From an uncultured Candidatus Saccharibacteria bacterium (lineage in GTDB: Bacteria; Patescibacteriota; Minisyncoccia; Phycocordibacterales; Zambryskibacteraceae), in NCBI GenBank assembly GCA_964348525.1, contig CAYGCY010000004.1, forward strand, positions 1,886-53,334: a stretch of DNA of 51,449 nucleotides, given 5' to 3'. The notes under the pieces are model-generated. The model was not told where the DNA came from and did no database searches. It saw only the letters and a list, made by a program, of their open reading frames with translations. The translations under genes and the position numbers were made by a program. The first letter of the stretch is position 1, and each line of letters starts with the position of its first letter. Below are positions 1 through 40,912 of the stretch, in pieces.

Positions 1-3000
1 CGCTCACGAACCTTCTTACTAATGGCTCCACCACCCTCCAAAACTTCACATTCCAGAACGCAACAGGTACTCAAGCTACTACCACCAATCTCTTCTCTAC
101 CAATGGCACATTCACAAATCTTTTCGCCAACACGCTTAATTTAGCCAACCTATTAGTAACTGGTTCTACCACTCTCCAAAACCTCACATTCCAAAACGCT
201 ACAGGAACAAACGCAACGACAACTAATCTTTATGTTTCAGGTAGAGCCTCCACCACAGACTTAAGAGCAAACACAGGAAACATCGGAAGTTTAACAAGCG
301 TGTTTGCTACGCTCACGAACCTTCTTACTAATGGCTCCACCACCCTCCAAAACTTCACATTCCAAAACGCTACAGGAACAAACGCAACGACAACCAATCT
401 TTATGTTTCAGGGTTAGCATCAACAACTAGTCTTCGCGCAAACACAGGATTGTTTGGGAATGTTGGGATTGGTTTATCAAATCCTACAACCAAACTTCAC
501 ATCTCAGACATAACAGCTAATGCTCCACAAATCCTAGTTGAAAACACAAGTACTTATGGAATTCGTCTCGGATTAAATTCAAGCAATGTTGGTTTTATGG
601 GTTCAGCAAATGCAACGCCAGTACAAATTCAAACTAATAGTATTGCTCGAATGTATTTTGATACCGCAGGAAATGTTGGCATCGGAACATCTAGCCCGGC
701 GGGTGGGCAGTTAGTTATATCTTCTTCAACAGGCCCCCAACTTGCACTTACAGATGCATCTTTAACTAATAATGTCTGGACCTTTAGAAATTTGGGAAAT
801 AATCTCTATATTTCAACATCATCTCCAACATCATTCTCAACTTCAACTAATCCCGTTGTTTCTATAGATGGAATATTGGGTAATGTAAAAATTGGAACCA
901 CATCAGAATCTTATGCCTCTTCTTACACGTCTACATCCACAAAACTTCAGGTTGGTGGCGCTGGTAAATTTGGCTTTGGTTCATACGGAACAAGTAATCA
1001 AACTACAGTGACCGATGCCAGCTTGATTATTCCAACGGGCGGTCAAATATATATGGAAAATGCTCAGGGCTTCTTAAGAACATTGATTAAATCAGATGGA
1101 AGTGGAAACGTAGATATTGGGCAATCAGGAACAGCGATTGTTCCCTCAATAAGTTTGAAGGCAGGGAATGCCGGGTATATTTCAATGATACCCGGAGGAG
1201 GCGAGGCAATGAGAATTGTCAGTTCCGGTCTTGTTGGAATTGGTACAACCACACCAATTGCTAACGTAGATATTTTCAAAGCAAGCGGAGACGCATCTCA
1301 AGGATTTACCTCTTCCTCAACTGCGGGGGTACAGATGGCGTGGACAATCGGCACTGATATTTCTGATTCAGGAAAATTCAAAATATCTTCCTCAACACTT
1401 CTAGGCCTCAATGATAGATTTGTAATTGATGGATCGGGGAATGTGGGAATAGGCACAGCGAGCCCAGGAGCAAAATTACAGGTATATGGAGATGGGGCAA
1501 GCAGTGCCGGGACTATTTTAATCGACCAACCAACCTCACCAACCGGTTCAACTAGTGTGGGTCCTCACATATTCTTTAAATCTGCTGGGGTAAATAGAGG
1601 GTGGATAGGATTTTTTGATGCATCAGCTCACGGCAACGGCACAGAGATGAATTTGCGAGGTTATGCTGGCTTGAGATTGTCTGGTGCGTCAACTGGTGAT
1701 CATTTATATGTAAATACTAGTGGTAACGTTGGTATTGGGACAACAACACCTACCACTCTTTTAAATGTCTACGGAGATGCCTCCTTTGGACAGGCTGCGA
1801 AATCTACTATCTTTATCAGGGGCTCTGCTGGTACAGCTATTTCTTTCAATAGAAATCCAACGAGTGGAGCGATTACTAATACAGGTGCATATTCATATCA
1901 ATTAAATCACACAGAAAGTACCACTAATACAAGTGATTATTTAGCATGGCAAATCTATGATACGGCCGGTAATTCTGTTGCAAACAATGCTTTTGTATTG
2001 AATGGTGTAGGAAATGTTGGCATCGGCACCACCTCTCCTCTCACAAAACTCTCGGTTGCAGGCAATGCATATATAGGAGGATGGTTAATGGCAACAGGGA
2101 CAGCTTCAATAGCCGGAAACACATATCTAGGCTCTGAACTTTTGGTAATGGGTTCAACAACACTTCAGAATTTCACTGGGACAAGTGGCACTACAACCAA
2201 TTTCTTTGCCACCAATCTTACTGCCACTAATCTTACGTTTACGAATGAGATTACCACAAACTCAACTTCTACAAATGCAACCACTACCAATCTCTATGTT
2301 TCCGGGTTGGCTTCAACAACTAACCTAAGAGCAAATACTGCTTTGCTAGGAAATGTCGGTATAGGCACAACGACATCACTAACTGAAGCACTTACCGTAG
2401 ATGGAAATATAAAACTTAACAACAACACACTTTCTGCCCAAAGCATTACTCTCGATTCAGAAACAAGCATTGGTCTACGTGTTACTAATCCAAATGGGTA
2501 TGTTTCTATTACTCCGCTCAACACTTCTGGCGCTCATATCTATACCAGTCTTCCAAGATTTTATTTCAATGTAGCCCCAACTTCTATTACTGGAGCATTT
2601 AGCGCATACAGCACGACAGACCTCAGTCTCCAAACAGGAAGTGGTGCGTCTACTAGAATGACAATAAAAGCAGCTACTGGAAATGTGGGTATTGGTACCA
2701 CCACCCCAGAAGGCAGATTGGACATCCTCTCAACTAACACTCCAGGAATTGGCGCCGAGCCCACAGTAAAAGGAACACTAAGAATATTAGATGCAGGAGG
2801 GGACACGGCTTCAGCTGGAGGATTGGAATTCAAATCAGCAGCTACAGGCAATGGTTATGGCTGGAGACTCACTGCTCCAGACGAAGTAGGAGCACCAGGC
2901 TCACTGTATTTCCAAAAGAGAGCCAATTCAGCTTCTTGGACAAATGCAGTTACATTTAGAGGAGATTCTGGGAATGTGGGGATAGGTACGACGAGCCCTT

Positions 3001-6000
3001 ATGCAAGACTCTCTGTTTGGGGTTCTGATACATCCGCCACAACCCGTGCATTTGAAGTTGCAAATAACGCTTCTACCACAATGTTCTCTGTATTTAATAA
3101 TGGTCTTGCCGCTGCCACCAATTTCTTAGTTAATGGGTCTTCAACACTTCAAGCATTTACAGGAACTAATTATCTAGCCCTTGGCTCCACAACTCTTCAA
3201 TCATTTACCGGAACTAATGGAATTATTACTAACGCTACAACTACAAATGCCACCACAACTTACTTGTATGTTTCAGGATTAGCATCAACAACTGACATAC
3301 ATTCCAATACTGCAGACATTGGCTCTCTAGTTGCAAGAAATTTCCTTGCAAATGGCTCCACAACTCTTCAAACATTTACAGCAACACAAGCAACAATTAA
3401 TGCCACCAGCACAATAAGTAATCTCACGAATTCCCAAGAGTATTCAATAGCTCTAACTCTTGGTACCGAAGAGTGGGTCAAACTCGCTACAATTCCTAAC
3501 CATTCATACGCAACTTTTGTTGGAAATATTGGGTCTACAAACTCAGAAGAGACATTCAAAATAGACATTGGTACAACACACACTACATCGCTGGCATTAA
3601 TAGATGTCGATCGCCAGACATATAACGCAAGGTTGAGCGAAGTTAAAGTTGAAGGTGCTGATGGGGGTACTAGAACTATCTATGTAAGGATACGAACCTC
3701 TGATTTTGCTCCAACGATGACTTGGAGGGTGTTAAATGCAAAAGGTGCAATAACAGTGGTAAATGCAACTTCCACCACTCCTACAGGCGCAACTTTTGCA
3801 ACACTGCCTGTTACAGTCAATACATCAAACAACACAACTAAAACCCCAATATTCTTTAAGGGAAATGCTGACGCTTACGCGACCTTCACTGCGTCGTCAA
3901 CAGCGGGGGTATCTTTGGCGTGGTCTTTGGGGACCGACCTATCTGATTCAGGTAAGTTTAAAATATCTTCATCTACAGCATTAGGGTCATCGGACAGGTT
4001 TGTTATTGATGGAAATGGGAATGTGGGTATAGGAACTACCACCCCACTCTCCAAACTGGCAGTCTCTGGAGGCGTCTCTATTGGCTCCAACTACAATATC
4101 GCAGCTCCCACAGATGGGTTAATAGTAGAAGGTAGTGTTGGGATTGGGAGGTCGAGCGCAGGGGCTTCAAAATTACAAATTCTTGCAACTGGCAGTGGCT
4201 TTACTCAAGAAAAAACAATAGGAGGGTATTTCTATTCTATGGGTTTTAATGCGAACAACCCTTATTTGACATACTACTCGAGCACTGGGATGACGATTGG
4301 TTACGGAGAGGCTACAGGCGCAGCCCCAACAGTGAACACAATGACGCTATTGAATAATGGTAATGTCGGCATTGGTTCAACAACCCCACTCACAAAACTT
4401 TCTGTAGCTGGAAATACATATTTAGGTGGAAATGTAACAGCTACAGGCACAGCAACAGTTTATGGTTCTCTGATGGTTCTTTCATCAACCACTCTTCAAG
4501 TTGTTGGTGCAACTTATGCATCAACAACGCAAATCCAATCCACGGGGCAAGCATATCTCGCTACATCTGGTGGAAATGTGGGTATTGGCACTGCGGCACC
4601 TGCATACAAATTGGAAGTAGTGGGGACTTTGGGACATGACAATATTCAAATTTCTAAAGAGACAGCCATAAACTCTGGCACATACGGCGTTACTTATAAA
4701 ACTTTAATGTTGGGAGAAGAAGGGTCTCGTAGCATTTCATTAAACTATGATCCATCAACAAACACCTCAACCAATTTTAATGGTATTGATCAAATTTTTA
4801 TTCAAGACAGCAAAGGAATTTTGGCTCCAAACACTGCAGACAATGCCTTTATTGGGGTATTGAGACCGATGAATGATAGGGTTTATTTTGGAGGAAGTTT
4901 GAGTTCTGGAGATTTGCTAGGAGATGGTATGACAATTCTGTCTAGTTCCGGCAATGTCGGGGTTGGCTCAACCTCTCCTCTCACAAAACTCTCGGTTGCA
5001 GGCAGTGCATATATAGGGGGGTGGTTGGTAGCCACAGGCACAGCGCAAATAGATGGAGCTACTGTATTAAATTCAACACTGTTTGTTAATTCTTCCACAA
5101 CTCTTCAAAATTTTACTGCACAGAACGCAACCACTACAAACGCAACGACAACCAAATTTGCGATTACGGGTCTTTCTTCTCAAATTCCTTACGCATCACC
5201 TAATGGGGCGATTGTCCCACTTACAATTGGTACCAACCTTACTCTTACAAACGGTACACTTTCTTCTGCTCCCACATTTACCTTCCCATTCACAACCCAA
5301 ACTGATTGGGGGACACACAACGCAACCTCAACCATCATAGGATTTAAGGCTGGTTTTTATTCTCTCGCATCTTCGACAATAGGAAACAGCACTACTGGTG
5401 GAGGACTCACAATTTTTGGTGGAGCTACCACTACAAATAATTTCTTAGTATTGGGTTCAACTACTCTTCAAAATCTTACAACCACCAACGCCACCACAAC
5501 CAATCTTTATGTTTCAGGTCTCGCTTCCACCACAGATATTCATTCAAACCTAGCTAATATTGGCGCCCTTACAGTAGGTCCAATAACTTCCGGTTTGATA
5601 AATGGCCAAACAATTTCTTCAACAGCCTCATTCACAGGAACAGTAAATGCAGTTACAGGATATAAATTAAATGGCGCGGCTACTTCCGGCAACTATTTGA
5701 GGGGAGACGGAACCAACTTTGTTTCAAGCGCAATTCAAGTCAGTGATGTTCCTACACTCAACCAGAGCACAACTGGTTCGGCAGGAACTTTATTGCGCGA
5801 AGATAATCGCACAATCATACCAACCGAACTAACTTCCGCTTACTTAAAATTTGGCTTTACCAGTTTTGCCAATAATGATTCTTCACCTTACGCTGATTTT
5901 CTCCATATGAGGAGCTACACAGATGCTTCTGGCGGAAATGATAATTTGGTTATGTTCAACAAGAGCTCCATTGGTATGCGCATATACCAGCAGACTTGGG

Positions 6001-9000
6001 CAGCATCAACCTCTGCATACTCTTCTTACAAGGATGCAGTTCTAACAGATGTAGGAAGTGCCAATGTTACACTTCTTGGTTCAACAACTCTTCAAGCTAT
6101 AACAAGGACAACAGAACTCGCCCTAGGTTCCACCACCCTCCAATCATTCACAGGAACAAATGGCATCATTACTAACGCTACAACCACCAACGCTACAACA
6201 ACAAATCTCTATGTTTCTGGGTTGGCCTCTTCTTCAGCGTTGAGGGCTAATACTGCGTTATTTGGTGGAAATGTTGGAATTGGGACAACCACTCCAACCG
6301 CGCTTCTTTCTGTGCAAGGTGCTACCGCAAATCAGCTTATGTTGAGTTATGATGCCACCAATTCCACAAGGATATTCACCAACTCTGGTGGCGCACTTGT
6401 ACTAGACCCATCTGATGCTGGTGAGACAATTTATTTTGGTGCAGCAGGTACGTACTATATGAAGGGTGGGTCTAGCGGTTCAAATCTTTATGCACTCACA
6501 CTAAATCGTTCTGGTGGTAATCCTGCGGTAGCCGATATTTGGTCTGGCGGAAACGCTCTCGTTATTGGTGGAACATCAGCCGGCGCAGGAACTGTAACAA
6601 TAAATACTTCCGGTGGCGCAGCCCCAACCGCCTATTTTACTAGCTCAAGTGTTGGTATTGGAACGACGACACCAACACGACAGCTTACCGTAGCTGGTGT
6701 TGGAACAGGGATACTTAGGATCGATGGTAGTTTTTCTGGCGCTCCAGCAAGAAGGTCTATGCTTGAGTTAAGTTCTGACGATGCTGGAAGAGCGCAGGGT
6801 GTAATTACTATTTCTGCAGGAACAGAGGGGTGGTTTTATGGGAAACCATATTCAGCGGATGCATTTACAATTGGCTACGGCTCGTCTCAAGCTGAATACC
6901 CGGCACAATCAAAATTTTATATAACTAGTGCTGGAAACGTAGGGATAGGTTCATCTTCCCCGCTTACAAAACTCTCTGTAGCGGGAAGCGCATATATAGG
7001 AGGATGGTTGGTAGCCACAGGCACAGCACAAATTGATGGGGCAACTGTACTGAAGTCGACGCTGCTTGTTAATTCTTCAACAACCCTCCAATCATTCACA
7101 GGAACAAATGGAATTATTACTAACGCTACAACCACCAACGCCACCACAACCAATTTCTATGTTTCTGGATTAGCATCAACTACCAATCTAAGAGCAAATG
7201 TCGCAAACATTGGGAACCTTACTGTGACGACATGTAGCGGGTGTTCTGGTGGAACAATTGCTTGGCCTTTCACAAAACTATCAACTGGGGAGCAAGCAAC
7301 ATCAACTACACTTGCATTTTTGAATGGATTTATTTCAACAGCTTCTTCAACAATTAATTCCAATCTAGCTATTACTGGAAGTCTTGGAGTTGGGACATCA
7401 ACACCCAGTGGTTTTAAGGTTGATGTGGCTGGCAATGTGATACTTTCCGGTGATACTAGAAGTTTACAAATCGGACAGTCGGGTGGGCAAACCTTATATT
7501 TCCAAAATTCATCAAACGGAATTTCATTTAATAACAATCAGTTCCAATTTTTAACTACTCAAACATCAGGTTTTAATTTTTCTGGAGGCAATGTCGGTAT
7601 TGGAACCACCACTCCTTCTCGTGCACTAACAATATCTTCTTCAGCTGCACCACAACTTGCGCTTACTGACGCATCTCTTACATCAAACGCTTGGACAATG
7701 CGTTCCCTTGGCAACTTCTTCTACTTGGCGACATCAAGCCCAACGTCATATGCAACTTCGACAGTGCCTTCTCTTACAATCACACCAAATAATATGGTGG
7801 GAATCGGTACATCTACACCGGCTGCTGCAACACTTTCGGTGCAGGGAAGTATATATTCTTCTGGAAATGTAATGACATCTGGGCAACTCCTTGGCTCATT
7901 GCCTTTCAACTTCCTCACTACTCCTACAGCTTCGCCTTCTATAAATATGTCCACATACTCTACACTCTTAAACTGGGCGACAGGTTCTGGAGTGAGCGAC
8001 TTGTTTAGATTGCAAACAGATGCTTCTGCAAACGGCACAGGAAGTCTCCTTTTGGTACAAACAGGAGCGGGTGCCACCGTAAAACCATTAAATGTATATG
8101 CTGGTTCCGCGCAGGCGTTGACTATAGATACCTCGGGTAATACAGGTCTTGGTACCACATCTCCAGGTGCAAGGCTAGATGTTAACCAAATAAGCGGACA
8201 GCCAGGTGCATTCTTCGGAGACATTGCTGGCACTGGAACAGGGGGCACTATGCGATTTATTTCGGCACAAGGGCCAAATTCAACAGCAGACTATTATATA
8301 CAGCTAAACAACAACGCTCGTAGTGCTACTGGTGGGGTATTCCGCTTCACTGGGCGATTTGGTGCAAATGAGACTCTTTCTGTTGATGTGGCAAATCAAA
8401 GAGTAGGTATTGGTTCAAGTACCCCCGGAACAACACTCGCGGTTGTGGGTACTACAACGGGTTATGGATTTGTACCAAGCGCCAATTTGGCTTATGGTTT
8501 GGGTAGCACAGGACAAAGATTCAAAGATGTTTGGGTTGGTACTGCAAACATCGGTACATCCACTTGGTCAATTTCAAACGGCTCCGATGGCAGACTTACA
8601 TTCAACAACGCAGCAAACTCTGCGGGTACTGAAACTGTCTCTCTCGCAACAAATGGAAATGTTGGAATAGGGGTTACAAATCCACAATTTACTTTGGAAA
8701 TATCAGGAAGCACCAAAATTTCAGGGAATTTATCAAGTACATCTATTTCCATGTCTTCAATGAGCCCTTATTGGGCTACGTATAGTGCTGGAGGAGGAGC
8801 TGCTGGTAAAACACTTAAACTTAATGCATCTACTACTGTTATTTTTACTGGAGGAGCGATAAATATAAATAAGATAGGTAGCTATGGCACGGTGCAGGTT
8901 AGTTCTTATGCGATTAATGCAGGAATCGATGTAAATTTTTGGAGTGCTAGCCCGCCCTACGGAGATATGATCTTATTGGATTCTAGTAGATTAGTGTTTA

Positions 9001-12000
9001 CTTATGCGTATTCATCTTGGGGTACTAAGGCCGTGGTGTGTACGATTTCAGGAGATGCTGTTCAAAGTTGTGGATCTCCAGTAACTGTCAAATCTGGGAC
9101 AAGCCAGCCATGGCACAGCAAGCTAATTAACGTTGGTGATGGTACAAATTTCATTGTAGCTTACACGGATACAACCTCTGGAAGTGGTGTATTTGCGAGA
9201 GTCGGGGTAACTTCTGGCACTACTATTTCTTCTTTTGGCACAGAAGCCAGTTTCTCTGATGGAGGATGGAACACTACATATCCTACAATTTCAATGTTTG
9301 TTGCTACCACAACAAGATTTGTTCTTGGGTGGTACAACGCCACCCTAACTTCAGGGAGGTATGTAGTGGGCAATACAAGTGGCACCACAATAACATTTGG
9401 ACAAAGAGAAAATGGAGTTATGACCCACTCTTCCCCATCAGCAGGAGATGCTTTAATGCCCCTGTCTGATTCAAATATGTTGGTTTTTGCGCCAATAACC
9501 GGTGGTACTGTGCTTCATCAAATATCTGTTACGGGCACATCAACGATCGCTACTTCTACTCTTGCTGCATTATCCAATAGTGCGACAACTCCTTATGTTG
9601 ATCTTTTAGATTATCAAACAGTCGTTGTTGGTTACGGTACTAATTTTAGGATACTAAACATTTCTTCTTCCACAGTAACAAATATAGGATCACCTCAAAG
9701 CACGCCATCTGTTTCTCACCAATATATTGTTGGTATTTCAACTACCTCATTTATTTCAAATCTTCGTATTCTTAAAACAAGAGATATGTCTTTAACACAC
9801 GGCATTGATAGCTTTGACACAAGTCAAGCACTTGCCATCACCACGTCAAATCCGACAACAATGCGAACGATTAAACTTAGTGATTCAAAATTTGTTCATG
9901 TAATTGATGTGGGTTCCCAGATACAAATGAAAGCTGGGACTTATACTTCTACTGGGATTGAGAGGGTTGGTGCCCTACAAACCATTTCAACGACTACGAA
10001 TTATTTGTCTGCAGCGGCCTTAAGTGATAGTGCGTTTATTATTACTAATTCTTCTAATACTGGAGGAGCTAGTAGTGGAGGACACGTCGATGCGTGGATA
10101 TGTTCTGTTGACACTGCTAACACCATTACTTGTGGGACAGCAAGAAGGATTTTTGACTCTTATGTTGCAGGTGCTATCTATAATTCCGTAGACAGTTTTG
10201 GGAGCTCTAATTTTATCATTGGATACGCAACATCTACAAACGCCGCAGCTACTGTAGTGGCTGGTGCGTGGTCGGGTACCTCCATAACATCTCTTGGCAC
10301 ACCCCAAACATCCGGCTCAGGCTTAAGCATAACCGGTGTGGCTTTGGCTAGAATTTATGGGACTACAACACAGTTTGCTTTTGCGTATGTAGACAATACT
10401 GCAATATCTCCAGCTAAAAATAAGGTAGTAATAGGTACTATCTCCGGCACCACTATTACTCTAGGTAGTACGGCAAATCTTACTTCAGCGACCTCTTCTA
10501 ACATTAGAATTGTCTCTAACTCTCCCGACACTTTTATTGCTTACTCAACATTAACTTCCGGAAATGCTTTAATTCATGGTGCTATTTCAAATGAATATAG
10601 TGTAGCTACCACTTCTGTGCCGTTTGAAACATTAGCAACTCCTACTATGAGCGTATTGGATACCAGTCATATAATGTTATCGTCTGGGGCTGACTTTATA
10701 ATTTTCGAAACAGCACCTTCTGGTATAACTAGAATGCAGAATAGACAAACCGTACGAACAGGTGCCGTAACATACTTTAGCTCAATGGAGAATATCGCTG
10801 CTTTTAGTACAACCAGTGCAATAGTGTCTTATTATACTGATAATTTGGGTGGTAGTACCAACACTTATTCGGTTGCTATTTTATTTGATACAGCCGCGTT
10901 AAATTACCAATCTAAAGCACTTGTCATTAAGGAAACAGGCACGAGTCTTTTTGGAGATCCCAGAGTTGGTATTAACAATACTAGTCCTCTTTATGCCTTG
11001 CATGTTAATGCACCCACGGGTGAAACGACTGTGGCAGGATTTTCAAACGGTTCTTATACTTGTACTGTAAATCCTGCTGATACAGCATTAACATGTACTT
11101 CAGACATCAGACTTAAGAACAATATCTCCACGTTAGCAAGCTCAACGGACATTATAAGAAAACTAAGGGGCGTTAATTTCTCATGGAAAAATGATGAAAC
11201 AAATGCAAATCATATAGGATTTATTGCACAAGAAGTTCAAACAATTGCGCCAGAACTAGTGTCGGAAGGACCAAACGGAATATTGGGGGTGAACTACTTA
11301 AATTTTGCACCCTACTTGGTAAACGCATGGAATGCTTTGGATGTGCGCGTTTCTTCTCTTGAAGGAATTGCAACATCGACACTTCCTGCAACATCAACAC
11401 CAATGCTCTCTGTGACATCAACTGGTTTGGGAATTGGAACACTAACACCAGCATTTGCGCTTCACGCAAAATTTGGTGGAGAGGGAACTGCGGTATTTGA
11501 AAATGAAAATGGAATTTGCGAAATAAATCCAAACACGGGTTCATTTGGCTGTGCACCTAATAGGGGAGCAGTAGTAGCTACATCAACAATAGGCACCAGC
11601 CTTGCAAGCTCAACCGAAATAATAAAGAAACTTCGCGGAGTAAATCTCTCTCTAATGTCTGCTTCTTCAAGCGTAAGTCAATTTGGATTCCTAGCAGAGG
11701 ACGTGGAGATGATAGCTCCTGAACTAGTTTCAAATGTGGGTGGAATTAAGCTAGTAAAAACAACAGAGATGATTCCTCTTCTAGTAAACTCGGTTGCAGA
11801 TTTAGCCGTAAAAATAGACACAATAGATGAAAGGCTTGCCAAACTCGAAGCGCTAGTTGCTACCACCACAACTGCCACCTCAACTACCGCAACCAGCACA
11901 GGTATAACTTTGGGCGGACTAGATTTGCAGTTTGTAGTGGACGCAGTAGTAGGGGCATTCCAAAACATGACTACCCAAATAAGCTTCAACATCGCAAAAT

Positions 12001-12527
12001 TTAGTACCGTCTTTGCAGATAACATAATAATTGGTTCTAAAGAAAAACCATCCGGCATCACTCTATACGACATTGCAACAAGAGAGCCGTTCTGTATGAG
12101 AATCCAAAATGGGGGACAGATAACCACTCAAGGGGCATGCTCCGATGTGCTATTTGTAAACACTACTCCAACAGATGGAGGTACAACTTCCGGTGACACA
12201 AGTGGAGCCGTAGTGATAACAGACGTTGCAACAACTACAACTACAGCATCTTCTGATACTGCGACCTCGACCACTACAGCAAGCACAGACAGTGCAACTA
12301 CAACAGCTTCCACCGACACTACTACAACCACTGCTTCAACTGAAACTGGTACTACGGCCGTGACAACAGACACATCGACCCCCACAGCATCAACAGATAC
12401 AACCACAACGACTGCTTCAACCGATACCAGTACAACCACCGCATCAGAAACACCTGCCGAACCAACAGCTTCAGCTGATACCACTCAACCAACAGCATCT
12501 TCCGAACCTACACCTCCAACGGGCTAG
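1..12527 (+). CDS. Giant surface/secreted fibre protein, 5'-truncated by the window edge (>4,170 codons). It contains GNVGIGT modules, STTLQ-F-T/NATTTN/LYVSGLASTT modules, a central propeller-like block, two S74-type chaperone domains and a Thr-rich tail.
   Basis: The ORF track gives 300..12527. I read the same frame (codons starting at nt 3) upstream of 300 and found no stop (LTNLLTNGSTTLQNFTFQNATGTQATTTNLFSTNG...SLTSV), so the GTG at 300 is an ORF-caller artefact. More than 20 copies of GNVGIGT(T/S)xP-like strings. Stop TAG at 12525-12527, followed by a hairpin terminator. Confidence 0.92.
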   Translation, partial: LTNLLTNGSTTLQNFTFQNATGTQATTTNLFSTNGTFTNLFANTLNLANLLVTGSTTLQNLTFQNATGTNATTTNLYVSGRASTTDLRANTGNIGSLTSVFATLTNLLTNGSTTLQNFTFQNATGTNATTTNLYVSGLASTTSLRANTGLFGNVGIGLSNPTTKLHISDITANAPQILVENTSTYGIRLGLNSSNVGFMGSANATPVQIQTNSIARMYFDTAGNVGIGTSSPAGGQLVISSSTGPQLALTDASLTNNVWTFRNLGNNLYISTSSPTSFSTSTNPVVSIDGILGNVKIGTTSESYASSYTSTSTKLQVGGAGKFGFGSYGTSNQTTVTDASLIIPTGGQIYMENAQGFLRTLIKSDGSGNVDIGQSGTAIVPSISLKAGNAGYISMIPGGGEAMRIVSSGLVGIGTTTPIANVDIFKASGDASQGFTSSSTAGVQMAWTIGTDISDSGKFKISSSTLLGLNDRFVIDGSGNVGIGTASPGAKLQVYGDGASSAGTILIDQPTSPTGSTSVGPHIFFKSAGVNRGWIGFFDASAHGNGTEMNLRGYAGLRLSGASTGDHLYVNTSGNVGIGTTTPTTLLNVYGDASFGQAAKSTIFIRGSAGTAISFNRNPTSGAITNTGAYSYQLNHTESTTNTSDYLAWQIYDTAGNSVANNAFVLNGVGNVGIGTTSPLTKLSVAGNAYIGGWLMATGTASIAGNTYLGSELLVMGSTTLQNFTGTSGTTTNFFATNLTATNLTFTNEITTNSTSTNATTTNLYVSGLASTTNLRANTALLGNVGIGTTTSLTEALTVDGNIKLNNNTLSAQSITLDSETSIGLRVTNPNGYVSITPLNTSGAHIYTSLPRFYFNVAPTSITGAFSAYSTTDLSLQTGSGASTRMTIKAATGNVGIGTTTPEGRLDILSTNTPGIGAEPTVKGTLRILDAGGDTASAGGLEFKSAATGNGYGWRLTAPDEVGAPGSLYFQKRANSASWTNAVTFRGDSGNVGIGTTSPYARLSVWGSDTSATTRAFEVANNASTTMFSVFNNGLAAATNFLVNGSSTLQAFTGTNYLALGSTTLQSFTGTNGIITNATTTNATTTYLYVSGLASTTDIHSNTADIGSLVARNFLANGSTTLQTFTATQATINATSTISNLTNSQEYSIALTLGTEEWVKLATIPNHSYATFVGNIGSTNSEETFKIDIGTTHTTSLALIDVDRQTYNARLSEVKVEGADGGTRTIYVRIRTSDFAPTMTWRVLNAKGAITVVNATSTTPTGATFATLPVTVNTSNNTTKTPIFFKGNADAYATFTASSTAGVSLAWSLGTDLSDSGKFKISSSTALGSSDRFVIDGNGNVGIGTTTPLSKLAVSGGVSIGSNYNIAAPTDGLIVEGSVGIGRSSAGASKLQILATGSGFTQEKTIGGYFYSMGFNANNPYLTYYSSTGMTIGYGEATGAAPTVNTMTLLNNGNVGIGSTTPLTKLSVAGNTYLGGNVTATGTATVYGSLMVLSSTTLQVVGATYASTTQIQSTGQAYLATSGGNVGIGTAAPAYKLEVVGTLGHDNIQISKETAINSGTYGVTYKTLMLGEEGSRSISLNYDPSTNTSTNFNGIDQIFIQDSKGILAPNTADNAFIGVLRPMNDRVYFGGSLSSGDLLGDGMTILSSSGNVGVGSTSPLTKLSVAGSAYIGGWLVATGTAQIDGATVLNSTLFVNSSTTLQNFTAQNATTTNATTTKFAITGLSSQIPYASPNGAIVPLTIGTNLTLTNGTLSSAPTFTFPFTTQTDWGTHNATSTIIGFKAGFYSLASSTIGNSTTGGGLTIFGGATTTNNFLVLGSTTLQNLTTTNATTTNLYVSGLASTTDIHSNLANIGALTVGPITSGLINGQTISSTASFTGTVNAVTGYKLNGAATSGNYLRGDGTNFVSSAIQVSDVPTLNQSTTGSAGTLLREDNRTIIPTELTSAYLKFGFTSFANNDSSPYADFLHMRSYTDASGGNDNLVMFNKSSIGMRIYQQTWAASTSAYSSYKDAVLTDVGSANVTLLGSTTLQAITRTTELALGSTTLQSFTGTNGIITNATTTNATTTNLYVSGLASSSALRANTALFGGNVGIGTTTPTALLSVQGATANQLMLSYDATNSTRIFTNSGGALVLDPSDAGETIYFGAAGTYYMKGGSSGSNLYALTLNRSGGNPAVADIWSGGNALVIGGTSAGAGTVTINTSGGAAPTAYFTSSSVGIGTTTPTRQLTVAGVGTGILRIDGSFSGAPARRSMLELSSDDAGRAQGVITISAGTEGWFYGKPYSADAFTIGYGSSQAEYPAQSKFYITSAGNVGIGSSSPLTKLSVAGSAYIGGWLVATGTAQIDGATVLKSTLLVNSSTTLQSFTGTNGIITNATTTNATTTNFYVSGLASTTNLRANVANIGNLTVTTCSGCSGGTIAWPFTKLSTGEQATSTTLAFLNGFISTASSTINSNLAITGSLGVGTSTPSGFKVDVAGNVILSGDTRSLQIGQSGGQTLYFQNSSNGISFNNNQFQFLTTQTSGFNFSGGNVGIGTTTPSRALTISSSAAPQLALTDASLTSNAWTMRSLGNFFYLATSSPTSYATSTVPSLTITPNNMVGIGTSTPAAATLSVQGSIYSSGNVMTSGQLLGSLPFNFLTTPTASPSINMSTYSTLLNWATGSGVSDLFRLQTDASANGTGSLLLVQTGAGATVKPLNVYAGSAQALTIDTSGNTGLGTTSPGARLDVNQISGQPGAFFGDIAGTGTGGTMRFISAQGPNSTADYYIQLNNNARSATGGVFRFTGRFGANETLSVDVANQRVGIGSSTPGTTLAVVGTTTGYGFVPSANLAYGLGSTGQRFKDVWVGTANIGTSTWSISNGSDGRLTFNNAANSAGTETVSLATNGNVGIGVTNPQFTLEISGSTKISGNLSSTSISMSSMSPYWATYSAGGGAAGKTLKLNASTTVIFTGGAININKIGSYGTVQVSSYAINAGIDVNFWSASPPYGDMILLDSSRLVFTYAYSSWGTKAVVCTISGDAVQSCGSPVTVKSGTSQPWHSKLINVGDGTNFIVAYTDTTSGSGVFARVGVTSGTTISSFGTEASFSDGGWNTTYPTISMFVATTTRFVLGWYNATLTSGRYVVGNTSGTTITFGQRENGVMTHSSPSAGDALMPLSDSNMLVFAPITGGTVLHQISVTGTSTIATSTLAALSNSATTPYVDLLDYQTVVVGYGTNFRILNISSSTVTNIGSPQSTPSVSHQYIVGISTTSFISNLRILKTRDMSLTHGIDSFDTSQALAITTSNPTTMRTIKLSDSKFVHVIDVGSQIQMKAGTYTSTGIERVGALQTISTTTNYLSAAALSDSAFIITNSSNTGGASSGGHVDAWICSVDTANTITCGTARRIFDSYVAGAIYNSVDSFGSSNFIIGYATSTNAAATVVAGAWSGTSITSLGTPQTSGSGLSITGVALARIYGTTTQFAFAYVDNTAISPAKNKVVIGTISGTTITLGSTANLTSATSSNIRIVSNSPDTFIAYSTLTSGNALIHGAISNEYSVATTSVPFETLATPTMSVLDTSHIMLSSGADFIIFETAPSGITRMQNRQTVRTGAVTYFSSMENIAAFSTTSAIVSYYTDNLGGSTNTYSVAILFDTAALNYQSKALVIKETGTSLFGDPRVGINNTSPLYALHVNAPTGETTVAGFSNGSYTCTVNPADTALTCTSDIRLKNNISTLASSTDIIRKLRGVNFSWKNDETNANHIGFIAQEVQTIAPELVSEGPNGILGVNYLNFAPYLVNAWNALDVRVSSLEGIATSTLPATSTPMLSVTSTGLGIGTLTPAFALHAKFGGEGTAVFENENGICEINPNTGSFGCAPNRGAVVATSTIGTSLASSTEIIKKLRGVNLSLMSASSSVSQFGFLAEDVEMIAPELVSNVGGIKLVKTTEMIPLLVNSVADLAVKIDTIDERLAKLEALVATTTTATSTTATSTGITLGGLDLQFVVDAVVGAFQNMTTQISFNIAKFSTVFADNIIIGSKEKPSGITLYDIATREPFCMRIQNGGQITTQGACSDVLFVNTTPTDGGTTSGDTSGAVVITDVATTTTTASSDTATSTTTASTDSATTTASTDTTTTTASTETGTTAVTTDTSTPTASTDTTTTTASTDTSTTTASETPAEPTASADTTQPTASSEPTPPTG
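8750..10900 (+). other. Central block of the giant protein with no GNVGIGT modules. It has roughly 55-65 aa repeats carrying an SG(T/S)(T/S)I(T/S)..G motif (propeller-like; inferred).
   Basis: Recurring strings in the translation: VCTISGDAVQSCGSP, GVTSGTTISSFGTE, GNTSGTTITFGQRE, VDTANTITCGTARR, AWSGTSITSLGTPQ, GTISGTTITLGSTA. Confidence 0.45.
11100..11366 (+). other. Peptidase S74 / tail-fibre intramolecular chaperone auto-processing domain, copy 1, with the S-D-x-R-x-K start
   Basis: Translation SDIRLKNNISTLASSTDIIRKLRGVNFSWKNDETNANHIGFIAQEVQTIAPELVSEGPNGILGVNYLNFAPYLVNAWNALDVRVSSLE fits the family pattern SDxRxK...L.gv.f.w......hiGfIAQEv....PElV.......v.Y..l.p.l..a...L. Confidence 0.8.
11607..11856 (+). 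other. Second, N-terminally truncated S74-like chaperone domain (no SDxRxK motif)
   Basis: SSTEIIKKLRGVNLSLMSASSSVSQFGFLAEDVEMIAPELVSNVGGIKLVKTTEMIPLLVNSVADLAVKIDTIDERLAKLE parallels copy 1 from the IIRKLRGVN position onward. Confidence 0.65.
12160..12524 (+). other. Thr/Ser/Ala-rich low-complexity C-terminal tail of the giant protein
   Basis: Translation TTTTASSDTATSTTTASTDSATTTASTDTTTTTASTETGTTAVTTDTSTPTASTDTTTTTASTDTSTTTASE... Confidence 0.8.
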
Positions 12528-12538
12528 AGCAACCCACG

Positions 12539-12559
12539 CCAAGGTTCCACCTTGGTAAA
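12539..12559. repeat. 21-nt hairpin motif CCAAGGTTCCACCTTGGTAAA, copy 1 (an identical copy lies at 50993-51013)
   Basis: Exact 21-mer seen at both sites. The stem is CCAAGG/CCTTGG with loop TTCCA. Confidence 0.8.
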
Positions 12560-12561
12560 TC

Positions 12562-12591
12562 AAAACTCCGCCCTTTAGGGGGCGGAGTTTT
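12562..12591. terminator. Bidirectional intrinsic terminator between the giant gene (+) and rnpB (-)
   Basis: AAAACTCCGCCC-TTTAGG-GGGCGGAGTTTT: a 12-bp stem flanked by an A-run and a T-run. Confidence 0.8.
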
Positions 12592-12597
12592 GATTTT

Positions 12598-12935
12598 GTG
12601 TTCGAGCTCGTAAGCCGAGTTCTGTTTCTAAGCAACATTTATCTTGGCGATGCATTACTGCAAAGCTCTAGCGACTCAAATTCCGCCGAAGCGAAAAGTA
12701 CGGTCTTGCACTCAAGTAAGGATTTAGCCGTTTCACTTTCAATATTACTATTGAACTCACCCCGTGCTTACGCTCGGGGCGATTTTTTTCTTTCAAAAAA
12801 AATCGTCTCTGTTCGCACCTCGCATATCACTATGGACGGGCGTTACCCGCTACTCTTGTTCCGCGAAAGCGGAACCAAGTGCTCGGACTTTCCTCCCTCT
12901 AAAAAATAGAGAGTGGTTGCTCGACTCGAACACCC
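12598..12935 (-). ncRNA. rnpB: RNase P RNA, bacterial type A
   Basis: The minus-strand read contains GGAGGAAAGTCCGAGCAC (CR-I), AGCGGGTAACGCCCGTC, GAAAGTGAAACGGC and ACAGAACTCGGCTTACG (CR-V). The termini pair as P1: GTGTTCGAG at 12598-12606 is complementary to CTCGAACAC at 12925-12933. Confidence 0.85.
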
Positions 12936-24798: not shown

Positions 24799-27700
24799 GT
24801 GTCTAATTCAACCTATAACACCTATAGAAATATTCGTAAAAATAAAGCTATAAAGCTGGTTGTTTTCTCTTTAATTTTCTTGTCGTCTTTGACGAATATT
24901 CAAGCGGCAAATCCTAGTGTTTCTATCACTGCAAACGGTGCTTCAGACAACTTGGGGATAAACCAAGGGGATACATTCACAATCGCATGGGTATCAAGTG
25001 ATGTTGTCGCTTGTAATTTGACTAGAAATGGCGAAGACCTTGGGGGCGTTAATGTTAGTGATTCTGTGGGGCCTATAGATGCAAATCATCTCTACTACCC
25101 AACGGCAACTTCTTCTGCAACATTCGCGATAAGCTGTACTGACGGGACGGACACTTTTAGTAGCTCTGTTGTGGTAAGCATAAATGCACCAAACTCTCCT
25201 CCACCTCCTCCTCCAGCCTCACCCGCTCCTCAATCAACAACGCTAAATGCTCCAACGATTACCGTAGCTACAAGCGCTCAATGCGGAGGTCAGATTGATA
25301 TATCTTGGCAGTCTGTAAGTGGAGCAACCTTTTACAATATAAACAGAGATGGTTCTCAAATATCTACCACTTCGAATTTGTCCTTTACAGATACGGGGCT
25401 AGTTCCTGACTCGGCGCATACTTACACGGTTTCTGCTACAGACGGAATAGTAACTTCCAATAATTCAAGCATGTCGTCTGTTTTTGCCTCAAGCGCATGC
25501 CCATCTGGAGCATCCGGAACAGTTCAAACCACTTCTTTCAATACTGACCCAGCAGACTATCCAACAATCAGTGTGTCTAATTACTCACAAAACCCTCTCT
25601 CAATTTCAAATTGGTCTCCAAGTGTAAATTTGCAACCTGGAGAAATATTGAGCGTAGGTATTTACTACCACAACGCTGGTTCTGTAGACGCTGTAAATAC
25701 AACCGTTTCAATACTTGTCCCAACGGGATCTAGTGCTAGTTTTATTGTCTCGGGTGGAGTATCCGCAGATAATGCTTCAGCAGTAGGAGGCTCTGCTACA
25801 GCAAACATTGCTGGTAGCGAATCGCTTACATACATCCCAGGCTCAGCTGTTTGGTACCCAAATCAAATCCAAGATCCTTCTCAAGGTGTTTCGTTGTCGT
25901 CATATTCACCAAACAACATAGGCACTATCGTGCCCGGCTGGCCGTCTCAAGGAATGGTAGTGGCGCGCTTTCAAGTTTCTAACTCTTCTTCAACCAGTAC
26001 CCCTATTTCTGCCCCAGTCTTAACAGGCTCAACAGGTGTTCAATGTGGAGGAAATATTTCTTTGTCTTGGAATAGTGTGTCTGGAGCTATCAGCTACAAA
26101 ATTTTTAGAGACAACTCTCTCATCACAACCGTCTCAAATAATTCATTTACAGATACTGGTTTAGTAGCGGGGAGTTCTCACAGCTACTATGTAGTAGCTT
26201 CAAATGGAATTTCTGACAGCGTGCCATCTAATACTGCTAATCTAGTCGCCTCTCTTGCGTGCACATCAGTACCGTCTGCACCAACAGGTGTGACGGTTGT
26301 AACAGGCATCCAGTGTGGGGGACAAATAGATATATCGTGGAGTTCTGTAGCAAATGCATCTTTCTATAAAATCTTAAGAGATGGGACTTTAATATCCACC
26401 ACCTCAAATTTGTCTTTTACAAACACAGGATTAAATGCAGGACAAACCTATTCATACAGCATCATAGCTGTAAATAGCATAGGGGACTCCTCTCCATCTG
26501 TACCAGCTCAAGCAGTTGCGTCTGCCGTATGTCCGAGCCAGCCTCCGGCTTCGCCCATTCTCTCTGGAGGAACTGGAGCAATATGTGGGGGACAAGTCGC
26601 CCTAAACTGGACGGCCGTATCAGGAGCAACTTCTTACACAGTATTCAGGGGAGGTAGCCAAATAAACGCCACTACCAATTTGTCCTTTACAGATACGGGG
26701 CTTACTTCAGGCCAAACATATTCATACACCGTGAGAGCATTAAATTCTTTCGGTTCATCTACTGACTCAAACATCGTTTCAGCTGTAGCTTCTTCTGTCT
26801 GTGGAGGGGGTGGCGGTGGCAATCCAGCGCCAACAGTAACCCTTATTCCTGTTCCGCCTGTTATTACTGCGGGAGCAACTTCTACTTTGTCTTGGACATC
26901 TACAAATGCAACATCGTGTTCTGCTTTGGGTGGATGGACTGCTCTAACATCTGTTTCAGGATCTCAAATAGTGTCGCTTGCTACTACCACATCGTTTACG
27001 CTGACATGTACTGGCGCTGGTGGTACAGCGACATCTACTGCGATAGTGACAGTTACACTACCGACAGCGCCACCCAGTGTGCCGACAAACCTAGTGGCTA
27101 ACACTGGGGCACAATGCGGAGGGCAAATAGACCTTTCATGGAATACTGCTTTAGGGGCAACATTCTATAACGTATTTAGGTCCGGAACTTTTGTGGCCTC
27201 CACTACCAATTTGTCCTTTACAGATACGGGCCTTACTTTTGGTCAAAGCTACTCGTATACCATTCAAGCGGGCAACTCTTTTGGTACATCAACCAACTCA
27301 AATACTGCTTCTGCATCTGCTTCTAGTGCCTGTGGTTCAGGTACTGGCGGTGGTGGAGGGGGCGGAGGTTCATCTTCTGGAGGCGGAGGGTCTTCTTCGG
27401 GCGGTGGAAGGGTATTGTCTACTACAGGTGGAGGAATATTCCAATGCAACTACCTAATAGACTACTTAAGAATAGATTTTCAGAATAATCCAGTAGAGGT
27501 TACCAAACTCCAAATCTTCTTGAGAGATTTTGAAAAAGAAAATTTGTCCGTTACAGGAATATTTGATCAAGCCACGTTTGATGCAACCTCTCGTTTTCAA
27601 GCAAAATATCAAGACGATATTTTGTCTCCTTGGGGTTATGCAGAAGGGGAATCTACTGGATACGTTTACATACTTACAAAAAAGAAAATAAATGAGATTG

Positions 27701-28275
27701 TGTGCAAACAAATTTTGAGCCTAACCACGGGCCAATTGCAGGAAATCTCAGAATTTAACAGCTTCCTATCTTCACTACAGGAAGGTTCTGCTGTTTCTCC
27801 AGAAATTAGAGAAACTATTTTGGAAGGAACTGGTACTCCAACATCTACTAAAAACATAATCTCTAGAATTACAGATAATCCAAATGTAAAAGCTTTAGCC
27901 TCCGCTGTATTTGCTACTCCACAAGGGTTTAGAAATACTCTGAAAGCAATATTCACCTTCTTGCTCGTTTTGATTGCTGCTTATGTGGTAGCAGAAGAAT
28001 TAATAAAAAGATTTCTAAAGACTACGGATAAAGACAACGAAAGACTTCGCAGGCTTGCTATCGTATTGGGATTTTTAGCTGGAGCTATCGCAGTGTCTTC
28101 AATACTTAAATATTTCGTGCTTATACTTCCGTTAGTTATTTTGATGGGGCTTTTGGTTGCTTTCTTTGGGTGGATAATTTGGAAAAAAAGAAATAAAAAA
28201 GGTGTTCTGGTTCAAAACTTTAGAATGATTCCACCTCAAGTAATCATTACTCCACCACCAGCCAAACAGTCCTAA
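24799..28275 (+). CDS. Secreted/anchored protein with two Ig-like modules, six FN3-like repeats, a poly-Gly/Ser linker, a PG_binding_1-like domain and C-terminal TM helices
   Basis: GTG start and a signal peptide (LVVFSLIFLSSLTNIQA). Six copies of (Q/I)CGG(Q/N)I.(I/L)SW.SV.GA..Y.(I/V)(F/N/L)R(D/G/S)..I....N.SFT(D/N)TGL......Y.Y. A GSGTGGGGGGGGSSSGGGGSSSGGG linker. VTKLQIFLRDFEKENLSVTGIFDQATFDATSRFQAKYQ. Two or three terminal hydrophobic helices. Confidence 0.85.
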   Translation: MSNSTYNTYRNIRKNKAIKLVVFSLIFLSSLTNIQAANPSVSITANGASDNLGINQGDTFTIAWVSSDVVACNLTRNGEDLGGVNVSDSVGPIDANHLYYPTATSSATFAISCTDGTDTFSSSVVVSINAPNSPPPPPPASPAPQSTTLNAPTITVATSAQCGGQIDISWQSVSGATFYNINRDGSQISTTSNLSFTDTGLVPDSAHTYTVSATDGIVTSNNSSMSSVFASSACPSGASGTVQTTSFNTDPADYPTISVSNYSQNPLSISNWSPSVNLQPGEILSVGIYYHNAGSVDAVNTTVSILVPTGSSASFIVSGGVSADNASAVGGSATANIAGSESLTYIPGSAVWYPNQIQDPSQGVSLSSYSPNNIGTIVPGWPSQGMVVARFQVSNSSSTSTPISAPVLTGSTGVQCGGNISLSWNSVSGAISYKIFRDNSLITTVSNNSFTDTGLVAGSSHSYYVVASNGISDSVPSNTANLVASLACTSVPSAPTGVTVVTGIQCGGQIDISWSSVANASFYKILRDGTLISTTSNLSFTNTGLNAGQTYSYSIIAVNSIGDSSPSVPAQAVASAVCPSQPPASPILSGGTGAICGGQVALNWTAVSGATSYTVFRGGSQINATTNLSFTDTGLTSGQTYSYTVRALNSFGSSTDSNIVSAVASSVCGGGGGGNPAPTVTLIPVPPVITAGATSTLSWTSTNATSCSALGGWTALTSVSGSQIVSLATTTSFTLTCTGAGGTATSTAIVTVTLPTAPPSVPTNLVANTGAQCGGQIDLSWNTALGATFYNVFRSGTFVASTTNLSFTDTGLTFGQSYSYTIQAGNSFGTSTNSNTASASASSACGSGTGGGGGGGGSSSGGGGSSSGGGRVLSTTGGGIFQCNYLIDYLRIDFQNNPVEVTKLQIFLRDFEKENLSVTGIFDQATFDATSRFQAKYQDDILSPWGYAEGESTGYVYILTKKKINEIVCKQILSLTTGQLQEISEFNSFLSSLQEGSAVSPEIRETILEGTGTPTSTKNIISRITDNPNVKALASAVFATPQGFRNTLKAIFTFLLVLIAAYVVAEELIKRFLKTTDKDNERLRRLAIVLGFLAGAIAVSSILKYFVLILPLVILMGLLVAFFGWIIWKKRNKKGVLVQNFRMIPPQVIITPPPAKQS

Positions 28276-40312: not shown

Positions 40313-40319
40313 ATTTAGT

Positions 40320-40391
40320 GGCGCGATGCCCTACAATCCGAGCTTTTCCGAAAGGTTCAGAAAGGTTCGGATGGCAAGGGGATTACGCGCC
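40320..40391 (-). promoter_or_regulatory. Structured 5' leader of rpsA (candidate autoregulatory element)
   Basis: The minus-strand read is GGCGCG...ATCCGA ACCTTTCTGAACCTTTCGGAAAAGC TCGGAT...CGCGCC. It has nested complementary arms and ends 7 nt before the rpsA ATG. Confidence 0.4.
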
Positions 40392-40444
40392 GTTATTAAT
40401 GATTAATTCTTATAATTCATACGGAACGAACTACGGGATAGTAC

Positions 40445-40478
40445 AAAAAAAACAGCCAACCCGCAAGGGGCTGGCTGT
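40445..40478 (-). terminator. Intrinsic terminator of cassette C1
   Basis: Minus-strand ACAGCCAGCCCC-TTGC-GGGTTGGCTGT followed by TTTTTTTT. Confidence 0.8.
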
Positions 40479-40497
40479 CATGACGGAGTTCTCCTCG

Positions 40498-40779
40498 CTA
40501 TTCGGCCGTCTTTGTGTCAGGCCGTGTTTTGAGGAGCTCCATGATTGAGTCGCACTGTGCTTGTGTGACTCGTCCCTCGATGAGGGGGACCGCTCCGCCG
40601 AACGCTCTCGGGTCCGGCTGACACGTGACGCTGTCCGTAACCACCCGAACATAGCCGGGTCTGTTGGGGACAGGCTCCACCCTAACGAACTCGGCTGTTG
40701 CGAAGAAGACGAGTCCCAAGGCAAGAATGATGGCTACCTTGAGAACGTCGAAATCGCTCTCGCTCCTTTCTTTCGGCAT
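40498..40779 (-). CDS. GC-rich small bitopic membrane protein with a 2-Cys ectodomain (cassette C1)
   Basis: 93 aa. SD GGAG 8 nt upstream. TM helix VAIILALGLVFFATA. Cysteines at VTCQPD and AQCDS. Confidence 0.65.
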   Translation of the reverse strand: MPKERSESDFDVLKVAIILALGLVFFATAEFVRVEPVPNRPGYVRVVTDSVTCQPDPRAFGGAVPLIEGRVTQAQCDSIMELLKTRPDTKTAE

Positions 40780-40820
40780 AACTACACTCCGTGGTGTTGG
40801 GTACGCAAAGATCTTTTTAG

Positions 40821-40849
40821 ATTATTACACATTATTTTATATTTAGCAA
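40821..40849 (-). promoter_or_regulatory. Promoter-like TTGCTA-N16/17-TAATAAT (TG-extended) for cassette C1
   Basis: Minus-strand ATTTGCTAAATATAAAATAATGTGTAATAATC. Confidence 0.45.
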
Positions 40850-40850
40850 A

Positions 40851-40884: not shown

Positions 40885-40912
40885 ATGTGCCCTGTGTCGC
40901 CGGGCCGGCGTC

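Follow-up and report, generated by a model that had tools for sequence, protein, structure and literature searches.

A giant chromosomal gene for a predicted trimeric surface fibre in an uncultured bacterium of the candidate phyla radiation

A giant open reading frame at the start of the window

The stretch of DNA analysed here (the window) comprises 51,449 nucleotides from an uncultured Candidatus Saccharibacteria bacterium, which belongs to the candidate phyla radiation (CPR), and corresponds to positions 1886-53334 of contig C4 (CAYGCY010000004.1). The genome spans 545,666 bp in 19 contigs, has a GC content of ~41% and is 98.8% complete. Its placement among Paceibacterota/Minisyncoccia follows from named relatives. 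At the start of the window lies a single open reading frame (ORF) that we interpret as the 3' part of a gene for a giant secreted fibre. It is in frame from nucleotide 3 without a stop, encodes 4,174 amino acids (aa), ends with a TAG codon at 12525-12527 and accounts for 24.3% of the window. These values bear out an earlier description made from the letters of the DNA alone (the sequence-only reading), in which one ORF of more than 4,170 codons filled 24% of the window. The features of the ORF are as follows.

3..12527, + strand: giant fibre gene, 3' part (4,174 codons plus stop); 5' end open, the window beginning after a 100-N scaffold gap
3..452, + strand: first STTLQNFT/NATTTNLYVSGLASTT.LRAN module block, three units; the repeat best conserved at the DNA level, where the assembly breaks
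450..8807, + strand: shaft of 70-125-aa modules, each closed by a GNVGIGTTxPxxxL capping loop (21 loops), alternating with STTLQ/NATTTN blocks
3375..4007, + strand: non-repeat shaft insert 1, aa 1125-1335, conserved in orthologue P0004
5535..6077, + strand: non-repeat shaft insert 2, aa 1845-2025, 'GNYLRGDGTNF...'
8808..10889, + strand: central block, aa 2936-3629, ~50-aa blades, predicted tandem beta-propellers, presumed distal head
10956..11009, + strand: last capping loop ahead of the chaperone, PRVGINNTSPLYALHV, which aligns with Bd3182 capping loops
11094..11372, + strand: Peptidase_S74 intramolecular chaperone copy 1, aa 3698-3790, with predicted cleavage at Ser3700 (nucleotides 11100-11102) and Lys3705 at 11115-11117
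11550..11852, + strand: S74-like copy 2, degenerate, aa 3850-3950, without S-D-x-x-x-K and ending in a coiled-coil-like 'ERLAKLEA'
12030..12152, + strand: conserved Cys-bracketed C-terminal module, 'EKPSGITLYD...C4031...C4046'
12153..12524, + strand: Thr/Ser/Ala/Asp-rich low-complexity tail, 42% Thr

The sequence-only reading also took the frame to be open to the window edge and to continue upstream. The continuation is real, but the contig does not begin at nucleotide 1, which instead directly follows a scaffold gap of 100 N (C4:1786-1885). On the far side of this gap, C4:1-1785 contains 594 open codons with the same repeat types as the window ORF and runs off the contig start.

Public metagenome data were used to assess whether this frame is authentic. 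The ORF is covered without a single difference, and at single-copy depth, by Logan contigs from four runs (three samples of one study). Positions 5069-12729 lie on a single Logan contig in one run, and 5069-12290 do so in a second run of the same sample. The internal DNA repeats of the gene are mostly 60-90% identical and shorter than 220 nucleotides, the closest long pair being 305 nucleotides at 93% identity (C4:450-754 against window 2688-2992). This coverage without differences, together with the mostly diverged and short repeats, argues that the long frame does not stem from sequencing error or repeat collapse. The Logan contigs break at window ~1-194, 2732-2942 and 4997-5069, which are three short high-identity repeats. 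Therefore, the local order of modules at these points rests on the original assembler, but the open frame does not.

The complete gene and its orthologues

When the window protein was searched against its own genome by tblastn, relatives were confined to contigs C4, C5 and C8. The true start and signal peptide, which the sequence-only reading expected upstream, are found at the end of C5. There, a start codon opens a frame with a Sec-type signal peptide (MKTFFNK-IIIFFIIFVLVF-PPSLLALPEKAQA, followed by S; cleavage between AQA and S), and 885 residues of the same modules remain open at the contig end. This start, which reads MKTFFNKIIIFFIIFVLVFPPSLLALPEKAQA/SFNEQINYQGKL..., is shared with the N-terminus of the complete orthologue P0004. 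A profile of the N-terminal domain (N-domain) finds exactly two copies in the genome, on C5 and C8, and S74 C-termini likewise occur at two loci, on C4 and C8. Because C8 carries an N-domain and an S74 domain of its own, the C5 start is assigned to the C4 end, and the window gene almost certainly begins on C5. A Logan unitig also connects the C5 end with the C4 start, although its depth of ~3x marks it as a repeat rather than a unique link.

Four orthologues were found in the database, of which P0004 (6,621 aa) and P0005/P0007 (6,480 aa) are complete. The three pieces lie on P0004 in collinear order, with the C5 end at 6-628, the C4 segment before the gap at 1561-2131 and the window ORF at 4942-6621. 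In total the assembled gene has at least 5,653 residues (16.96 kb, or 3.1% of the genome), which exceeds the window ORF by about 1,500 or more codons, and ~0.1-1 kb of coding length is probably missing in the two breaks.

The C8 locus (L003, G000:C8:9000-19021, 3702-9406) encodes a complete paralogue of ~1,900 aa with a 100-N gap inside. Its parts include a signal peptide and the N-domain, STTLQ modules, an S74 domain whose motif (SSLRFK) is intact, and a tail rich in Thr. It adjoins genes for a penicillin-binding protein and a Mur ligase, and a gene for a Gly-rich secreted protein follows.

An intramolecular chaperone and an extended C-terminus

The hidden Markov model searches proposed by the sequence-only reading, for PF13884 and tail-fibre families, both returned matches. 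Peptidase_S74 (PF13884) is the sole Pfam family detected in the window protein; it covers aa 3700-3753 and scores 70.1 bits (E 1.9e-19), where the cut-off is 22. PHROG tail-fibre families (9942 and 33119) match the GNVGIGT modules and the S74 domain, with PHROG 9942 on the GNVGIGT modules. A search against NCBIfam gave no match. The first S74 copy has the motif S3700-D-I-R-L-K3705, in which S3700, D3701 and K3705 are invariant in 5 orthologues.

Two S74-type chaperone domains had been proposed, and this holds in terms of ancestry. Copy 2 shares 40% identity with copy 1 (E 2e-18) and is its true paralogue, but it scores only 14.7 bits against the PF13884 cut-off of 22. A five-residue deletion has removed its Ser/Lys motif, which is likewise absent in P0004. 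Judged by sequence, then, this second copy is catalytically dead. The S74 domain does not lie at the extreme C-terminus, with ~385 residues between the end of copy 1 and the C-terminus, and 475 behind the cleavage serine. The segment past Ser3700 contains the dead S74 copy, the coiled coil, the Cys module and the tail, whose Thr content agrees with the Thr-rich tail described earlier. A fibre from the same genus (L090, G003:C5:18500-20968, 428-2467 on the reverse strand) has two tandem S74 domains that both bear S-D-x-x-L-K, followed by the same 'EKPGGITLYD...C' module and a Thr/Ser-rich tail.

Shaft modules and capping loops

The sequence-only reading counted more than 20 GNVGIGT(T/S)xP modules. 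The exact pattern GNVGIGT[TSA]xP occurs only 10 times in the window ORF, but the number stands for the relaxed loop [VLTK]G[IVL][GN]x2-4P, which is present 23 times, with 3 further variants that lack the proline. As had been described, these modules alternate in blocks with a second type, for which S[ST]TLQ occurs 13 times and the full NATTT..YVSGLAS..LRAN unit 6 times. A literature search for the GNVGIGT motif found no paper that mentions it. The two non-repeat inserts have no sequence relative in Pfam or the PDB.

The composition is rich in Thr, Ser, Gly and Asn, and six close Cys pairs point to an extracellular protein. Enrichment of N-glycosylation sequons was considered and rejected, because the ORF contains 88 N-x-S/T sites compared to 83 +/- 7 in shuffled sequences.

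The central block as a predicted propeller head

Between aa 2936 and 3629, the GNVGIGT periodicity is replaced by units of ~50 aa, for example '..FIVAYTD....G.F.RVG.TSGTTISSFG..' and 'L.DS..hhh'. The distinct central repeat block noted earlier is thus unlike the rest of the protein, and it is predicted to be all-beta. The repeat is present in 125 representative proteins, none of which has a Pfam family, and no Pfam family covers it in the window protein or in nine distant relatives. An AlphaFold2 model built on a four-sequence alignment is all-beta with ~60 strands and a mean predicted local distance difference test score (pLDDT) of 71.3. In Foldseek searches with this model, tandem-propeller proteins (DDB1, Elp2 and WD40 pairs) rank at the top with E values of 1e-11 to 1e-8, but at template modelling scores (TM-scores) of only 0.25-0.31; full-length TM-scores of the model are low in general (0.25-0.38). 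The viral library yields propeller-bearing proteins, including a short tail fibre and phage hemagglutinin-type proteins, with single-propeller matches at TMt 0.5-0.6. On this model, the block may form tandem (double) beta-propellers.

A relative of 3,567 aa (P0006) has a C-terminus that is 73% identical to the window protein and carries another propeller-type repeat at the head position ('..FPVISYYD...LKVAHCGNASCSSGN..'). This is a case of a head module exchanged between relatives.

Relationship to mosaic adhesive trimer fibres

Mosaic adhesive trimer (MAT) fibres have a signal peptide, a conserved N-domain of ~130 aa and an intertwined trimeric beta-helix with capping loops of the consensus V-G-G/N-π-x-x-P-x-x-x-L, and 13 of 21 members carry an S74 domain bearing SDxxxK (Caulton 2024, PMC10769870). 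In the characterised MAT fibres of predatory Bdellovibrio, the distal domains are adhesins for the surfaces of other cells (PMC10769870). Members in the passages of Supplementary Table S3 of that study considered here are 481-1,001 aa long and come from predators, and neither its text nor the supplementary files examined name a CPR member (PMC10769870). A separate literature search found no paper linking S74 fibres to CPR.

Searches of the PDB with the whole protein (phmmer) give weak matches only, an outcome of compositional bias, and therefore profiles of the C-terminal region were needed. A profile of the region before S74 plus S74, built exclusively from CPR sequences, matches the phage tail fibre 8JOV (E 4e-9), phage S16 gp37 (6F45, E 8e-8), the two Bdellovibrio MAT fibres Bd3182 (8OJN, E 9.2e-7) and Bd2133 (8OND, E 5.7e-5), MyRF (7DC3, E 1.4e-6) and T5 pb1 (8HQZ, E 1e-5). 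When the window protein is aligned with Bd3182, its PRVGINNTSPLYALHV falls on both capping loops defined in that structure (GRVGVGTTAPTSALHV and GFFGINTAAPAYNIHV), which identifies the GNVGIGT motif as the MAT/S74 capping loop.

A second link is provided by the N-domain (INYQGKLT...VPAAF), which lies outside the window, on C5. With jackhmmer (residues ~25-190), this domain of ~120-130 aa is found in fibre ORFs, directly behind the signal peptide, across many CPR classes and in Bacteroidota, as well as in metagenome-assembled genomes (MAGs) of a Verrucomicrobia and a Bdellovibrionaceae member. BLASTP against the Bdellovibrionaceae N-domain is marginal (E 0.03), so profile methods were required. 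A hidden Markov model built from CPR sequences only matches the Bdellovibrionaceae MAG protein, rather than the HD100 proteins, at E 6.8e-7, and hhalign relates CPR to non-CPR N-domains with 98.7% probability (E 1.8e-16). At the sequence level, the architecture matches that of the S74 subgroup of Bdellovibrio MAT fibres.

Genomic context

Downstream of the fibre gene are an RNase P RNA, genes for a TPR protein, MurJ and LepA, tRNAs, and genes for a class I aminoacyl-tRNA synthetase, TsaD and GyrA. The RNase P RNA (bacterial class A, 12595-12932 on the reverse strand, 113.5 bits) begins 68 nucleotides past the fibre stop and is overlain by spurious ORFs. The order of giant gene, RNase P RNA on the reverse strand, TPR and MurJ is kept at a locus from a JGI metagenome (L004) and in a Minisyncoccia MAG (L071). 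Upstream of the fibre start on C5 are MYG1, GatB and an envelope cassette of three genes with spacers of 1-2 nucleotides, which directly precedes the fibre (L002, G000:C5:30300-40300, 3275-7343). The cassette encodes a 374-aa protein with two HTH_17-like units and one transmembrane helix, a protein of 529 aa that weakly matches the peptidoglycan-binding WxLIP family and has 'SxNY' repeats, and a 449-aa FN3-like membrane protein. The same cassette also precedes giant fibre ORFs at four other CPR loci (L064, L033, L061 and L015).

Neither the ~39 kb that follow the fibre gene nor the 7 kb inspected upstream on C5 contain a phage gene, which agrees with the absence of flanking phage genes stated in the sequence-only reading. 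Together with the Sec signal peptide and the MAT counterpart, the housekeeping synteny also supports its proposal that tail-fibre and S74 logic here serves a chromosomal fibre borne by the cell, not a phage part.

Two other regions of the window were noted. Positions 24799-28275 (+ strand) encode a large envelope protein of 1,158 aa with an FN3 domain and a weak GH85_C-like match. Positions 40300-42200, between an S1-domain gene and an ORF at 42208-42867, form a region of ~1.9 kb with a GC content of 0.54 compared to ~0.41 in the background. No ORF in this region exceeds 175 aa, and no Rfam family is assigned to it, the sole match being Leu_leader at chance level (E 0.066). Foreign DNA or a large structured RNA could account for it.

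Distribution

PF13884 is present in 17 of 41 genomes of the same order. Related loci number at least 421 in species-representative genomes. The best 79 of these, a ranking biased towards the CPR query, comprise 31 from CPR, 28 from Bacteroidota, 4 from Bdellovibrionota, 7 from Proteobacteria or Desulfobacterota, 1 from Verrucomicrobiota, 4 from Archaea (Woesearchaeota, Aenigmatarchaeota and one Methanoregula-labelled contig) and 4 that are unclassified. Matches to the shaft modules occur in 12 of 50,697 phage records.

Proposed mechanism and alternative explanations

With a probability of about 0.72, we conclude that one chromosomal gene, whose C-terminal three quarters make up the window ORF, encodes a Sec-secreted, homotrimeric surface fibre of the MAT/phage-tail-fibre type. 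Trimer formation and host attachment are steps that we infer from homology. On the precedents of S74 proteins, endosialidase, T5 pb1, MyRF and Bd3182, three S74 domains would associate first and nucleate folding of the trimer from the C-terminus back along the shaft. As in the same precedents, they would then cut at Ser3700, freeing a fragment of 475 aa (48.6 kDa) and exposing the distal end. By analogy with MAT fibres, the N-domain would hold the fibre on the envelope of the producing cell, perhaps by docking on the products of the three upstream cassette genes, while the propeller head near the far end would bind a surface structure of another cell, namely the host of this presumably episymbiotic bacterium. 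Bd3182 measures ~550 Å for ~760 residues and the Bd2133 tip 142-150 Å for 370 residues (PMC10769870). At 0.4-0.7 Å per residue, the ~4,450 shaft residues would span ~0.2-0.3 µm. This length is comparable to the reported size of CPR cells.

Several observations weigh against this reading. The mature protein has no recognisable anchor, because it is predicted to lose the signal peptide by cleavage and contains neither an LPxTG motif nor a transmembrane segment, and thus its retention on the cell is assumed. No RNA run containing the fibre gene was found. Known S74 proteins do not have 475 residues, including a dead second S74 copy, past the cleavage site, and this extension could change the assembly logic. 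An AlphaFold2 monomer spanning the two S74 copies and the tail module (aa 3655-4060) reached a pLDDT of 32.6 and was discarded, and the propeller model carries the small alignment and low full-length TM-scores given above. Finally, neither the join of C5 to C4 nor the 100-N gap has a unique bridging sequence, and the order of modules near the three short repeats depends on the original assembler.

The last of these points bears on the possibility that the giant frame is partly an artefact, in which repeat-rich reads of several fibre genes or strains were chained into one ORF. The gene does lie at a contig start and across a gap, the contig breaks exactly in an STTLQNxTFQNATGT repeat, the Logan contigs break at the three sites named above, and the 305-nucleotide repeat ties the segment before the gap to window 2688-2992. 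However, a mis-join at short repeats would shuffle modules rather than create an ORF, most of the DNA repeats are less than 90% identical, and the Logan pieces agree without a difference at single-copy depth, including 7.6 kb (5069-12729) that is unbroken. Moreover, the complete orthologues of 6,480 and 6,621 aa lie on contigs of 58-100 kb and are collinear with the gene pieces. We therefore regard such chaining as very unlikely. Still less credible is a phage or prophage tail-fibre gene, or its remnant, within the chromosome. S74 domains and GNVGIGT modules do occur in phage tail fibres (PHROG 9942 and 33119), tblastn matches cyanophage and pelagiphage fibre genes at 25-33% identity, and NCBI labels one relative as a 'tail fiber domain-containing protein'. 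The neighbours, however, are housekeeping genes, which in relatives are kept in synteny (RNase P RNA, TPR, MurJ and LepA), and they argue that this is no phage part. The fibre also has a MAT-type N-domain and a Sec signal peptide, and virion fibres have no need of the latter. In addition, its 5,650 or more residues exceed every phage fibre matched, the longest PDB chain match being 1,076 aa, and the few matching phage records stand against at least 421 cellular loci.

An explanation that we likewise consider unlikely, though not to the same degree, accepts a real surface fibre but gives it a structural or protective role rather than one in host attachment; it might space the envelope, form an S-layer-like coat, act in biofilms or aggregation, or serve as a phage decoy. 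No binding specificity is known for the fibre, its Thr/Ser/Gly/Asn-rich composition would suit such a role, and the C8 paralogue sits beside genes for cell-wall synthesis. Homologous fibres also occur in free-living Bacteroidota (Hymenobacter, Dyadobacter and Emticicia), and thus the family is not restricted to predators or symbionts. On the other hand, the only characterised cellular relatives use their distal domains as adhesins for other cells, and the head module is swapped among close relatives, as expected of a recognition part. A shaft of 0.2 µm with a single distal head would be superfluous in a coat protein, and the number of sequons is no higher than in shuffled sequences.

Significance

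Little is known of the means by which the ultra-small, uncultured CPR bacteria locate and hold on to their hosts, and type IV pili are the only device that has been studied. The fibre gene takes up ~3% of a 0.55-Mb genome, occupies a fixed chromosomal site in relatives and is assembled from the parts of a characterised cell-to-cell recognition fibre. These properties make it a concrete candidate for the host-recognition organelle of the lineage, and the sequence of its swappable head could come to serve as a marker of host range. With this gene, the known MAT/S74 design also reaches a six-fold greater size, CPR cells of monoderm-like build and chaperone domains in tandem.

A more far-reaching proposal, which we put forward as speculative and doubtful in its entirety, is that Paceibacteria-type CPR build their main host-capture organelle from one MAT-type trimeric fibre of ~6,000 residues and 0.2-0.3 µm. 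Such a fibre would be docked to the envelope by the cassette and would bear three distal double-propeller heads, whose exchange might predict host range. The membrane-tethered helix-turn-helix protein would couple the status of the fibre to gene expression, and the tandem S74 domains, of which both keep the motif in the congener and one is dead in the window protein, would give a two-step, checkpointed maturation with a separate 48-kDa product.

Comparison with known systems

Among giant surface proteins, SprB of Flavobacterium is a repetitive adhesin of ~6,500 aa, in a size class comparable to that of the window fibre and with a presumed role in cell-surface contact, but its domain grammar is unrelated. 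The giant genes of Omnitrophota (bioRxiv 10.1101/2023.11.21.568195) are similar in size class and presumed role, but their domain grammar is likewise unrelated and the preprint mentions neither S74 nor tail fibres. The ICA domain of MyRF (PDB 7DC3) resembles the window protein in its S74-type domain and upstream beta-helical stalk, and in MyRF it drives trimerisation and self-cleavage. MyRF differs in being a eukaryotic membrane-bound transcription factor without a fibre shaft and with a different biological role.

Phage endosialidases are laid out as a beta-propeller, a short trimeric stalk and a chaperone, the same order as the propellers, last capping loop and S74 domain of the window protein. 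The Ser-Lys dyad of S74 is also shared with the endosialidase/tailspike proteins and T5 pb1 (PDB 3GW6, 4UW8 and 8HQZ; S16 gp37, 6F45). Unlike endosialidase and pb1, the window fibre has a signal peptide, lies in housekeeping synteny without phage neighbours, is at least 5 times longer and does not have S74 at its extreme C-terminus.

The closest likeness is to MAT fibres of the Bd3182 type (PDB 8OJN, 8ONB and 8ONC), in which a signal peptide is followed by a beta-rich N-domain of ~130 aa, a capping-loop shaft and an S74 domain with S-D-x-x-x-K. As in Bdellovibrio, the gene is chromosomal and cell-borne, and its distal modules are mosaic and swapped among relatives. In contrast to the S74 subgroup of MAT fibres, which have about 650-1,100 aa, the window fibre is ~six times longer, with at least 5,653 aa, and its longest orthologue has 6,621. 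A size of about 1,000 aa is typical of MAT fibres but is a description of the family rather than its definition. It also differs in its STTLQ/NATTTN shaft modules and the predicted double-propeller block before S74, in the dead second S74 copy, Cys module and Thr-rich tail past the cleavage site, and in the upstream HTH_17/WxLIP-like/FN3-like cassette. Its bearer, moreover, is a CPR bacterium, without the outer membrane and the prey-invasion vesicle context of Bdellovibrio. The window gene therefore represents a giant variant of a fibre type that has already been described in predatory bacteria.

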